A stretch of DNA of 56,824 nt from Paenibacillaceae bacterium. GTDB taxonomy: Bacteria > Bacillota > Bacilli > Paenibacillales > UBA4045. The notes under the pieces were generated by a model. It did not search any database. It saw only the letters and a program-made list of their open reading frames with translations, and was not told the DNA's origin. The stretch lies in contig JBBDTA010000014.1 in NCBI GenBank assembly GCA_040904605.1, positions 1-56,824 of the forward strand. The letters are read 5' to 3'. Positions 9,071-41,758 of the stretch are shown here, in pieces. The first letter of the stretch is position 1. Each line of letters begins with the position of its first letter. A program made the position numbers and the translations under genes.

Positions 9071-9086
9071 AAGGATCACTCCTTAA

Positions 9087-9213
9087 AAGTTTTTGATGAT
9101 CACGCAAGTGGTCGATAAAACTACATCGTAAGCATAAACTAAGTTTTTGATGATCACGCAAGTGGTCGATAAAACTACATCGTAAGCATAAGCTAAGTTT
9201 TTGATGATCACGC
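9087..9213. repeat. 54-bp tandem repeat (about 2.35 copies) of an intergenic hairpin element
   Basis: Unit AAGTTTTTGATGATCACGCAAGTGGTCGATAAAACTACATCGTAAGCATAA(A/G)CT starts at 9087 and 9141, with a partial copy at 9195. One mismatch between the two full copies. Confidence 0.95.
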
Positions 9214-17154: not shown

Positions 17155-18417
17155 TTAATGCTCTGTCCAGCTCTCAAGGTAGCTCTTCTGCTCTGTTGTG
17201 AGTTTGTCGATCGTCATACCGAGTGCTTCGAGCTTGAACAATGCAACTTGAGCATCAATCTCGTAAGGTACATCAACTACCTTGTTGCCTATTAATTTAT
17301 ATTGTTCGTTCACATACTTTAATGACATAGCTTGCAAGGCGAAGGTCATGTCCATAATCTCAGCAGGATGACCGTCTCCCGCAGCGAGGTTAACCAAGCG
17401 ACCTTCTGCTAATATATAGAACTTACGGCCATCAGGCAGCTGATACTCTTCAATGTTACGACGAACCGTACGTTTACCATTCGATAGAGCTGCTAGCTCG
17501 ACCAAATTCACCTCTACATCGAAGTGACCAGCGTTACATAGGATTGCTCCATCCTTCATTACCTCGAAGTGCTCACCGCGAATAACATCCCTATTACCGG
17601 TAACTGTTACGAAAAATTCGCCAACCTTGGCCGCTTCAAGCATAGACATTACAGCGAAACCATCCATGTACGCTTCCACAGCACGGATTGAATCTATCTC
17701 AGTTACGATTACATTCGCTCCGAGGCCCTTAGCTCGCATAGCAACCCCTTTGCCACACCAGCCATAGCCGCATACAACGACCATTTTGCCAGCTACAACT
17801 AGATTTGTCGTCCGATTGATTCCATCCCATACAGATTGACCTGTTCCATAACGATTATCGAACAAATATTTGCAGTAAGCATCATTCACCGCGATCATCG
17901 GAAACTTCAGCTTGCCTTCCTTCTCTAACGACTTCAAGCGTAGAATGCCTGTCGTCGTTTCTTCAGCACCACCACGTACATTGACCATCAATTCCGGTCT
18001 TTCGGCATGAAGAATGGTAACTAAATCGCCACCATCGTCGATAATGAGATCCGGCTTGTTCTCTAGAGCCATGACCATCAATTGTTTGTACTCTTCAGGA
18101 CTCGGATTGTACTTCGCAAATACGGTAATTCCATCCTCAACTAGTGCAGCACACACATCATCCTGGGTAGAAAGAGGGTTACTTCCAGTAATGGTTACTT
18201 CTGCGCCACCTGCTTTTACTACCTTAGCCAGATAAGCTGTCTTCGCTTCAAGGTGAAGAGAGATTGCTACCTTCAATCCTTTGAATGGCTGTTCCTTCTC
18301 GAATTGCTCTCGAATTCGGTTCAGAACCGGCATATGCTGGTTTACCCAATCGATCTTCAGGTGACCTTCTGGTGCTAGCTTAATATCCGTAATTATACTC
18401 GTTTGTAATGTGTTCAT
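17155..18417 (-). CDS. ahcY: Adenosylhomocysteinase (SAH hydrolase)
   Basis: SNPLSTQD, DDGGDL, EETTTG, FDNRYGTGQS, GYGWCGKG, GHFDVE and GRLVNL motifs. Confidence 0.96.
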   Translation of the reverse strand: MNTLQTSIITDIKLAPEGHLKIDWVNQHMPVLNRIREQFEKEQPFKGLKVAISLHLEAKTAYLAKVVKAGGAEVTITGSNPLSTQDDVCAALVEDGITVFAKYNPSPEEYKQLMVMALENKPDLIIDDGGDLVTILHAERPELMVNVRGGAEETTTGILRLKSLEKEGKLKFPMIAVNDAYCKYLFDNRYGTGQSVWDGINRTTNLVVAGKMVVVCGYGWCGKGVAMRAKGLGANVIVTEIDSIRAVEAYMDGFAVMSMLEAAKVGEFFVTVTGNRDVIRGEHFEVMKDGAILCNAGHFDVEVNLVELAALSNGKRTVRRNIEEYQLPDGRKFYILAEGRLVNLAAGDGHPAEIMDMTFALQAMSLKYVNEQYKLIGNKVVDVPYEIDAQVALFKLEALGMTIDKLTTEQKSYLESWTEH

Positions 18418-18431
18418 GTTGTTCCTCCTAA

Positions 18432-18521
18432 AAGTTTTGTTTATTATAGTGACTTACGAAGTAAAGTCATTCATTCATACAAAACTACTTCGTAAGCATA
18501 AGCTAAGTTTTGTTTATTATA
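18432..18521. repeat. Variant copy of the intergenic hairpin-repeat element
   Basis: Core AAAACTACTTCGTAAGCATAAGCTAAGTTTT (18481-18511) differs by one base from the 9171-9201 copy. 17-bp direct repeat AAGTTTTGTTTATTATA at 18432 and 18505. Confidence 0.85.
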
Positions 18522-20163
18522 AATAAACAGCATAATGACTGCCATTCGACTCAAATTCCGCATGGAGTAACTCCTTGAGCCATCCATCGCCATACTTGTT
18601 GAGATAGCTTATTACATTATAAACTCTTTCCTGTCTTCTCCCAAGTGGAATTAAACTCTGACGAATTCGCTCATATTGTCTCTTCGCTGCATCGAACTGG
18701 GCCTCATAAGCATCCTTCGATTTGGCTTCAAGAAACTGAATCTGCTCCATAATCTTATGTCGATTCGTATCCCCAAGCTGACGAATACCTGGATTGATCG
18801 TTCCAATCGCCTCCAATACAGGTCCATACAAAGCATCGAACTGATCCTTCACATTCGCGAACATCTGCGGTAAGCCTATAGAATCCTGATCTTCCAGCCA
18901 TTCTGTACGCTTCTCGTCGAGACGCAACACCGCATCCTCAAAAGATAGATCGAGCTTAACAAGCTGCTTCTGTACCGTACCTTCTACCAATGTGAATTCC
19001 AGACGAGGAAGGATGATTGGCATTTGATCACCAACAGAGCGGAAAGCCTCTCGAGTTAGCCCCCAATAAGCAATCTCACCTCCACCCAACACCGCACTGA
19101 GTACAGGGAATAGATAATTCTGCATAAGAGGTCTAGTGAATACATTATTACTGAAATTCTCAGGCTGCTGCTCGGCTAAACTTAGAAGCTCTGATTCACT
19201 CATGCGAAATCGCTCCATTTTGTCCGTATAATCATCACCCTGGCGTTGAAGCAGCAGTCGTTCACCCTCATGAATAATGAATAAATTGGCATTACCCTCC
19301 CGGATATCAGCTTGCGGCTCGTAACCAAGTCCGATTAAACGGTCTTTGGATACCTTAAGCGCCTGACCAATCGTCTTCTGTTGAATAATTAATTCCCGGA
19401 ACATGGGGGCTTCAATCTGTCTTAGATTCGGATCATCGGAATCCATCAATATAAGACCCTCTGAACCGAATAACATACTCATCATTCCAGCGAATAGATC
19501 AACCAACGTATTAGATTGCGTGGATAATTCACGTAGCTTACCCATCCAGTGCGATTTAAAATCCGTTGACATCAACGAAGTATCCAGTTTCTCCAGCACC
19601 CGCTCCCATTGCTCAGCAGAAATCGCTAAGCGACTTATGGGAACTCTCGTACCTTGACCCTTGGAGCTATCTAACTCTATCTTCTCCAGTGCTAACTGCG
19701 GAGTCAGTTGATGAATATGATTAACCTCGTCCAGATCATGATCCTCACCAGCAATCCAGAACACCGGGATCACCGGGCGATTCAATCGTCGCTCCGCTTC
19801 CTTCGCTGCACGAACAATCGAGATAGCTTTATGTATGACGAGTAGGGGACCCGTGAACAAGCCTGCTTGTTGCCCACCGATAATTACAAGCGTTTCGCTC
19901 TGTCGCAATCTATGTATCGATTCTATGACATTAGCTGAATTTGGGAATCTGATGTTATATTGCTCTAACGCTTGTACAACAGCTTCTCTAGGAGCGGAAA
20001 TCGTGGTTTGTTGATCCAACCAAGCTGCTCGTTCCTGAAGAGACTGAGATATACAAGGGTTATATTCGAACAAATCCTGTACCTTTGAATAATCGTGTAT
20101 ATAATCTTCAGCCAGCGGCTGAGTTTGCTTCCAGCGTATGTGCTCTAGCTTCATCTCTCTCAT
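18517..20163 (-). CDS. bshC: Bacillithiol biosynthesis cysteine-adding enzyme BshC
   Basis: GQQAGLFTGPL, PVFWIAGEDHD, FSNNVFTRP, GGEIAYW and QERVYN motifs; usual position upstream of mraZ. Confidence 0.95.
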   Translation of the reverse strand: MREMKLEHIRWKQTQPLAEDYIHDYSKVQDLFEYNPCISQSLQERAAWLDQQTTISAPREAVVQALEQYNIRFPNSANVIESIHRLRQSETLVIIGGQQAGLFTGPLLVIHKAISIVRAAKEAERRLNRPVIPVFWIAGEDHDLDEVNHIHQLTPQLALEKIELDSSKGQGTRVPISRLAISAEQWERVLEKLDTSLMSTDFKSHWMGKLRELSTQSNTLVDLFAGMMSMLFGSEGLILMDSDDPNLRQIEAPMFRELIIQQKTIGQALKVSKDRLIGLGYEPQADIREGNANLFIIHEGERLLLQRQGDDYTDKMERFRMSESELLSLAEQQPENFSNNVFTRPLMQNYLFPVLSAVLGGGEIAYWGLTREAFRSVGDQMPIILPRLEFTLVEGTVQKQLVKLDLSFEDAVLRLDEKRTEWLEDQDSIGLPQMFANVKDQFDALYGPVLEAIGTINPGIRQLGDTNRHKIMEQIQFLEAKSKDAYEAQFDAAKRQYERIRQSLIPLGRRQERVYNVISYLNKYGDGWLKELLHAEFESNGSHYAVYL

Positions 20164-41292: not shown

Positions 41293-41312
41293 TAATTGAT
41301 ATGTAGGAATAG

Positions 41313-41758
41313 AAAAGCTTGTCGTAAGCCGGGTTCTGTACTCTCAAGTGGTTATAACGGGGGTTAGCCCTCCCACGGCGAAAGTGACAATCATCTATCT
41401 AGGCCACGCATTGCTACGTGGCTCCAGCGACCAACCCGAACGCGCCTCGAGCTAAGGCTGTGCCTTTAAGCACTGCGTTCCTCCTAGGTCTTGCTCCAGA
41501 TGGGGTTTACCAGGACGTAAGTCGCCAAACATCCTCGTGGTCTCTTACACCACGGTTCCACCCTTGCCTGTTCGTATATCTGGAAACCAGACATACGCCA
41601 TCGGCGGTCCATTTCTGTGGCACTAATCCTTCAACTCGCGCTGACTGGACGTTATCCAGCATCCTGCTCTATGGAGCCCGGACTTTCCTCCCGTATTCGA
41701 ATGAGAATGGCACATGCACATTAACATTCGAACGCCGGCGATTGTCTGACAAGCTTCC
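41313..41758 (-). ncRNA. rnpB: RNase P RNA (type A-like)
   Basis: Minus strand has GAGGAAAGTCCGGGCTC, AGTGCCACAGAAA, GGTAAACCCC and ACAGAACCCGGCTTA. P1 helix AAGCTTGTC/GACAAGCTT closes the ends. Confidence 0.96.

Follow-up and report, generated by a model that had tools for sequence, protein, structure and literature searches.

The window analysed here, the whole stretch of 56,824 nucleotides, is contig C14 of a 2.28-Mb Paenibacillaceae genome that is 65% complete (G000), and it carries between bshC and ahcY, and again before murE, copies of a short structured repeat (Table 1). All three genes lie above their NCBIfam cut-offs. In the loci of relatives across the order bshC is found directly 5′ of ahcY, and one conserved operon (bshC-ahcY) probably links bacillithiol synthesis with SAH hydrolase.

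Table 1. Features of the bshC-ahcY intergenic region and of the second array in the window (SD, Shine-Dalgarno sequence)
Feature	Position	Strand	Remarks
Full repeat unit, subtype B, 73 nt	18430..18502	-	Core C-NN-ATGCTT-N-CGA-W-G-Y, then hairpin AGTTTT-[interior]-AAAACT, then TTT; the 73-nt period equals the spacing of the direct repeat
Core motif	18487..18502	-	Conserved family-wide
Variable hairpin	18433..18486	.	Conserved basal stem AGTTTT/AAAACT; interior subtype-specific
Inverted core fragment CTTACGAAGTA nested in hairpin	18453..18463	+	Probably a self-insertion; other subtype-B copies alike
Left junction dinucleotide AG	18503..18504	-	CT on the template strand
SD of ahcY, AGGAGG	18424..18429	-	Its first AG is the right junction
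17-nt tail of extra unit	18505..18521	-	Repeats 18432-18448; meets the bshC end through the shared TATAATA
ahcY, adenosylhomocysteinase, downstream host gene	17155..18417	-	ATG at 18417
bshC, upstream host gene	18517..20163	-	Stop at 18517-18519
Second array, before murE	9084..9213	-	Two 54/55-nt subtype-A units plus a 19-nt tail; ends AAG↓GAG (about 9079-9084)

The sequence-only reading had picked out a 31-bp core with self-complementary ends (AAAACT/AGTTTT), and the match on which it was based is real: 18481-18511 and 9171-9201 are identical at 30 of 31 nucleotides, and a third copy in the window lies at 9117-9147. However, this segment is not the unit itself, which measures 73 nt here; it spans the junction between two units. 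Likewise, the 17-bp direct repeat (18432-18448 and 18505-18521, the second arm overlapping the bshC stop) is present as described; the second arm is the tail of a second, extra unit. A target-site duplication was rejected because the empty allele holds only the 7-nt TATAATA of the repeat, and a TIR-type MITE was rejected both for this reason and because the unit ends, C-NN-ATGC and AAAACTTTT, are not complementary. The segment between AGTTTT and AAAACT folds as the hairpin that had been proposed, with z = -3.6 for plus-strand RNA (none of 200 shuffles as good) and z = -2.0 for minus-strand RNA (7 of 200), and the inverted core word that had been read within it is there.

Beyond the window, the core has 20, 36 and 57 matches in the genome at up to 2, 4 and 6 mismatches, and a profile search gave 128 hits, 108 of them at E<0.01, whereas the reversed genome gave none. 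The dispersed family that had been suspected from two copies thus comprises 105 loci in this 65%-complete genome. An SD and the start of a long open reading frame (ORF) lie at the repeat end in 70 of the 99 loci with an intact 3′ side, as against 0 of 105 in the reverse direction; across nine genomes, the array ends directly at AGGAGG before a start codon in 142 of 186 loci among the matches listed, as against 3 of 186 in the opposite direction. The latter count is anchored on the core alone, with six more distant genomes entering with their first listed matches; loci picked by an SD-containing pattern (L253-L332) were left out of it, and were included in the counts of downstream clustering, hairpin strand, junction conservation, reading frames and linkers. 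Adjacency to the ribosome-binding site in a fixed orientation, as claimed from the window, is therefore a property of the family. In the source genome, the end motif of the repeat precedes up to about 9% of strong-SD genes (105/1174, a figure with no chance control).

Read on the mRNA strand, with arrows at the junctions, the unit is AG↓C-NN-ATGCTT-N-CGA-W-G-Y(N) - AGTTTT [interior] AAAACT - T(0-3)N - AG↓GAGG, with a size of about 36-80 nt and a hairpin of 17-59 nt. The basal stem AGTTTT/AAAACT is intact in 202 of 244 units, and there are a few double changes such as GGTTTT/AAAACC. In subtype A, the commonest subtype in the source genus, 203 of 246 stem cells are Watson-Crick pairs, compared with 145.6 +/- 5.5 in column shuffles (maximum 163 in 2000), although the copies are related, the covariation was counted by script and the excess over shuffles is not a probability. 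The stems show compensatory change, and the hairpin is probably under selection. Where the hairpin interior is long it holds words resembling the core, in inverted form in subtype B and in permuted form in genus g17; this suggests that units have inserted into themselves. In one array (L522; G023:C236:3450-3850) the tandem 37-nt units include GGAG(G), such that SD-like words are repeated within the array. A likeness to CRISPR repeats or attC sites, based on the GTTTT...AAAAC ends, was also considered and dropped; the neighbouring genes belong to core operons, and each of the two alternating segments derives from the repeat.

It is informative to ask which strand the hairpin favours. In subtype A the template strand is the more stable in 39 of 45 copies with RNA parameters and in 41 of 45 with DNA parameters; G-T wobbles favour it 20:9, or 18:5 with a loop-anchored pattern, and its loops read GCNA in 28 of 45 copies. 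Loops of the c(GNA)g and c(GNNA)g types are unusually stable in DNA. Among the Paenibacillus subtypes the strand bias is weak or absent (23/45 RNA, 20/45 DNA), and the hairpin interiors fold poorly, with z of about -0.6 to -1.1. No conserved reading frame runs from the core ATG; depending on the copy, it stops in the core, in the hairpin, in the SD or nowhere.

Comparison of orthologous sites shows that the repeat comes and goes. In 2 of 30 genomes the repeat occupies the bshC-ahcY gap, as different subtypes; a third named metagenome-assembled genome (L306) has a third subtype there, and a metagenome contig has 13 nt, as in G002, in place of the 90 nt found here; about 8 host letters are missing at the ahcY site relative to an 87%-identical relative. 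Among 55 loci from three congeners, 26 have no orthologue in G000, and the 29 that do comprise 13 filled and 16 scored as empty, of which three are mis-anchored (L045, L051, L079); at five others a 3′ stub or a decayed copy persists (L036, L063, L072, L073, L085). Two sites in g17 are occupied in some of its species but not in others, and the empty alleles already have the SD and spacer. L396 has retained the host stop TAG to its left and GAGGTG to its right. The SD-type end TTTGAG, which is terminal in the sister species' L378 and L379, has in L377 become an internal junction. No empty allele from the same species or strain occurred among the contigs compared. These filled and empty sites, at ahcY, in g17 and among the congeners, agree with the earlier proposal of a non-autonomous mobile repeat.

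The strict sense orientation beside the SD could instead mark a cis-regulatory leader (a protein-binding RNA, a standby site or a portable promoter) of the kind represented by Neisseria REP2. Some sites are indeed common to species, as the 13 filled orthologues in G000 illustrate, and the ahcY locus has 3 promoter-like sites against 1.1 +/- 1.0 in shuffles, with two TATAAT matches in the direct repeats. These hexamers lie in the subtype-B tail at 18443-18448 and 18516-18521 on the minus strand, and some copies might supply a weak promoter. Nonetheless, the downstream genes are unrelated, with 256 ORFs falling into 200 clusters, and the neighbours do not appear to form a regulon; many sites are empty in close relatives; the murE site holds subtype A in G000 and subtype B in G003; some copies lie within MITEs; and subtype A folds worse on the mRNA strand, with the core ATG lacking a conserved frame. 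We therefore consider a regulatory leader very improbable, and the structure-conserved regulatory mRNA element that had been inferred from the window is not upheld. The repeat may still have secondary effects on expression.

The junctions define how the unit meets its host. AG closes 172 of the 207 internal or stub linkers, and GG another 22. Conservation falls to background after AG↓GAGG, and the spacer matches that of empty sites; these comparisons identify the last SD letters and the spacer to the start codon as host sequence. A T before AGGAG is enriched (38/80 compared with 182/875), so part of the SD context travels with the repeat. At the other end, a bare AG opens 82 of the 267 arrays, an extra tail is present in 139, and the remaining 46 have neither; the tails, of 4-39 nt, match the array's own variant and are remnants of an extra unit, left either when copying went round a second time or when part of a tandem pair was deleted.

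An array with one fixed and one ragged end invites comparison with a bacterial SINE, in which an mRNA with the unit and AGGAGG would pair with a nicked template ending CCTCCT and a reverse transcriptase would copy away from the SD and stop variably, much as in target-primed reverse transcription. Tails that match the array's own variant would fit such RNA-templated copying, as would the 7-nt microhomology at the left ahcY junction with its lost host letters, the T that moves with the repeat, the GGAGG within the tandem units of L522 and the invariable location of the unit on the mRNA strand. However, a comparison of different loci found no unique donor flank common to them, the 82 clean starts at AG are not ragged, and deletion in a tandem pair could equally leave tails. 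Furthermore, reverse transcriptases (RVT_1) occur in 21 of 26 genomes rich in the repeat and in 17 of 23 poor in it, are absent from the closed repeat-rich G019 and G078, and have a repeat nearby at 1 of 30 loci, in a repeat-rich genome. We regard copying from RNA as unlikely.

What the repeat recognizes is best seen where it has entered other repeats. In G078 a unit sits at AG↓GCGG within an unrelated 240-nt MITE (20 filled copies read, 31 empty), with two target letters missing at the junction, and in a second host repeat family a unit lies before GACGG. These cases indicate that the target is a sequence rather than translation. Consistent with a sequence target, two copies in G000 (C110:18987-19053 and C42:4085-4130) lie at a perfect SD-like site that has no start codon at the usual distance. 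The host MITE (L467-L498; G078, G043, G064) is about 240 nt long, has TIRs that begin TATA and at least 50 copies in G078, and includes a subfamily with the SD repeat as a passenger; the second host family has filled and empty versions in G000 (C25:9300-9470, C83:50-200, C45, C154, C155, C116, C135).

Several other repeats were encountered in these genomes. G002 and G003 have a repeat of about 230 nt, built as a nested palindrome, that contains the core (L064, L080, L081, L084, L086, L096), with L084 broken by a further insertion; a G000 copy (C80:2440-2700) is without the core. G000 also has three further families, two of them made of 51-nt units in tandem and the third a long palindromic element (C6, C17, C38, C131; C11, C114, C129, C147; C3, C9, C68, C111, C133, C137), and a terminal sequence shared by 14 sites, most near contig ends (C16, C32, C41, C70, C84 and others), which resembles the end of a multi-copy insertion sequence that was left unassembled.

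The repeat had been taken for a possibly lineage-specific one, and this proved too narrow. A core extended by one base was found in 155 of the 301 genomes sampled from the order, with up to 173 copies and no matches in the reversed control, and an independent 15-mer across the SD junction occurs in 167 of the 301, in the same genera. Outside the order, a similar 14-mer in 231 Bacilli never exceeds 3 per genome, like its control. At least 80 named records match the full unit, and among the matches listed all are Paenibacillus, Paenibacillaceae or unclassified Bacilli; four further families have copies with the same anatomy. The comparisons place the family across much of the order and not in one lineage. 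Within it the distribution is patchy, the 15-mer being found in 34 of 37 g17 genomes, 7 of 48 in g25 and 1 of 19 in g28, as expected for a factor that comes and goes among sister genera. As had been surmised, no catalogued Rfam family covers the repeat: at the gathering threshold the window matches RNase P only (bacterial class A, 41310-41757 on the minus strand, 263 bits), and nine loci at E<=1 gave one miRNA match with E 0.9, its score falling well short of the gathering score. The repeat had no match among the plasmids of PLSDB or the phages of INPHARED, and IMG/VR gave 6 core-like matches, none with the unit anatomy. No description of the family was found in the literature searched, which excluded most subscription journals and all supplements.

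The families searched for a partner were Y1_Tnp, REP_Tyr_transpos, RVT_1, IS110 and IS607, and none of them co-occurred with the repeat. The suggestion that a RAYT or other Y1 transposase moves the repeat did not hold. REP_Tyr_transpos (NF047646) is above cut-off in 0 of 66 genomes chosen as repeat carriers, a result difficult to reconcile with a canonical RAYT. Y1_Tnp occurs in 8 of 23 genomes rich in the repeat and in 11 of 23 poor in it, is absent from four of the five genomes of the source family (G000, G001, G003, G004) and from the closed repeat-rich G019, G064, G078 and G200, and in the Y1 loci read is never flanked by the repeat as part of an element, although two have host-neighbour copies. 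Likewise, no recurring mobile gene emerged on clustering 256 upstream and 256 downstream ORFs, and a scan of 94 + 55 mobile-gene loci found a copy nearby at three: in L556 and L557 it precedes host sequence outside the insertion sequence, and L137 was seen as an array alone. In E. coli, tnpA-REP is carried by 74 of 110 strains and strains without it are reported to keep their REPs (PMC3333891), so absence from single genomes is not decisive.

The shared AG core, the absence of terminal inverted repeats and the asymmetric 5-6-nt target would also suit a miniature derivative moved as a double-stranded circle by a site-specific recombinase with a 2-bp core (the IS110 bridge, IS607 serine or tyrosine type). 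IS110 genes are common (31 of 34 genomes searched), translation initiation signals are the reported target of IS900 (PMC8141618), and AGGAG is given as the TAM of IS607 TnpBs (PMC11061315). Yet the repeat is at the ends of 0 of 30 IS110 loci read, out of about 260 IS110 matches, and of 0 of 20 loci from the IS607 search; IS607 TnpA is above cut-off in 1 of 44 genomes, and the repeat-rich G043 and G076 have no IS110. The two positions beside the left junction vary freely, which would be a poor fit to guide pairing. Such a recombinase seems to us less likely again than copying from RNA.

One could also dispense with a dedicated enzyme altogether and suppose that host repair joins small circles or fragments, released from arrays by looping out, at sites of microhomology (AG, AGG, AGGAGG, GCT/ACG), with selection keeping SD-adjacent copies only. 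The lack of a partner gene among Y1, RAYT, RT, IS110, IS607 or recurring neighbours would then need no explanation, the long interiors do resemble permuted or inverted cores joined at short shared words, and units at one site differ by 15-34% between species, compared with 5-7% for the adjoining coding DNA. However, a shared word of two or three letters is too short to account for the AG↓GAGG of most copies, and the conservation of the core across families, the compensatory change in the stems and the patchiness among sister genera all count against it; we consider host repair improbable. It is also tempting to suggest, tentatively, that a mobiliser outside the Y1/RAYT, RT, IS110 and IS607 families reads AG↓GAGG, joins short hairpin DNA and regenerates the ribosome-binding site, in which case the thousands of copies at Paenibacillales translation starts would constitute an undescribed class of SD-restoring mobile repeats.

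Known systems provide partial parallels. Like the REP/BIME sequences of E. coli, the repeat consists of small intergenic hairpin units with variable linkers and tandem amplification (PMC3333891, PMC6006769), and the high copy number and palindromic units characteristic of REP/BIME-REPIN are found here as well. Its junctions fall at CT on the template strand, which recalls the reported cutting of single-stranded DNA at C↓T by TnpA-REP, a proposed builder of BIME arrays through single-stranded circles (PMC3333891). It differs from REP/BIME in that no REP-flanked tnpA was found in the genomes searched, successive units run head-to-tail in a fixed position against the SD, insertion is at AG↓GAG(G), and no family-wide GTAG precedes the hairpin; GTAG appears in the G000 variant on the mRNA strand only, and other genera read GCGAG, GCCAG, GCAAG or GTCAG. 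Mycobacterial interspersed repetitive units (MIRU) are, as reported, similarly short, gene-less, apparently mobile, located at translation starts and thought to spare downstream expression, but they insert at the start codon and couple a small ORF at -4 (PMC12548453), whereas this repeat inserts in the SD and has no conserved ORF; a MIRU-like coupling ORF was rejected because the stop position varies by copy. Neisseria REP2 and Borrelia IR-A/B are described as dispersed two-hairpin repeats that lack terminal inverted repeats and lie directly upstream of genes (PMC3184786), which is true here too, but REP2 is reported to have its own promoter, ribosome-binding site and ATG, a length of 120-150 bp and a contact regulon (PMC3184786). 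In this repeat the spacer and start codon are host-derived, the units of about 36-80 nt are tandem and self-nesting, and the downstream genes are unrelated by sequence. IS900, of the IS110 family (PMC8141618), and IS607-TnpB with its AGGAG TAM (PMC11061315) are also reported to recognize SD-like or translation-start sequences; these are autonomous and encode transposases, and no such element sharing the repeat's ends was found among the 30 IS110 and 20 IS607-search loci. Thus, the repeat builds arrays like REP/BIME, spares translation like MIRU and sits like REP2, and it departs from each in defining features.

The reading that we prefer, with a rough probability of 0.6, is that of a gene-less, non-autonomous mobile repeat of REP/BIME-like habit that inserts into the SD and restores it. 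The unit anatomy and fixed orientation, the filled and empty orthologous and paralogous sites, the AG junctions and the host-derived SD end and spacer are observed directly. From these, the unit would insert at AG↓GAG(G) directly 5′ of the SD and rebuild the site; a 5-6-nt target, combined with the purging of insertions in coding DNA, would explain the placement with no link to translation; because the target is recreated on insertion, occupied sites would be hit again or would duplicate locally, and tandem arrays, swaps of subtype and hairpins nested in one another would result; and the restored SD would keep the cost low. Taken together, these steps, from anatomy to low cost, seem to us highly probable.

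The chemistry is the least certain part. That single-stranded template-strand DNA is joined at CT in the manner of REP/BIME, by an HUH-type reaction, we would place somewhat below even odds. In G078, 31 of 39 exact-match loci are presumed to be co-oriented with replication (the origin being assumed at base 1), so at most loci the template strand would also serve as template for the leading strand, contrary to the IS608 rule; this count and the lack of a candidate among the enzyme families searched both weigh against single-stranded DNA. Clean cutting and joining is also disfavoured by the proportion of bare-AG starts (82/267) and by the apparent loss of target letters at the two informative junctions, those at ahcY and in the MITE. 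Nonetheless, we favour joining of single-stranded DNA over mRNA-templated copying, a 2-bp-core recombinase and host repair.

The repeat family is real, widespread and apparently undescribed. Inserting into the SD and rebuilding it would add a safe-harbour strategy beside those of MIRU and REP2, and how REP2 spreads has itself been posed as an open question (PMC3184786). Given that the repeat occurs in cultured Paenibacillus, and that there are sister genera with and without it, the mobilising factor is open to comparative genomics and to experimental tests, and any enzyme able to join short DNA at AGGAG would also be worth having as a tool. On the reading favoured here, a selfish repeat has reshaped translation-start regions across a large and much-studied group of soil bacteria.
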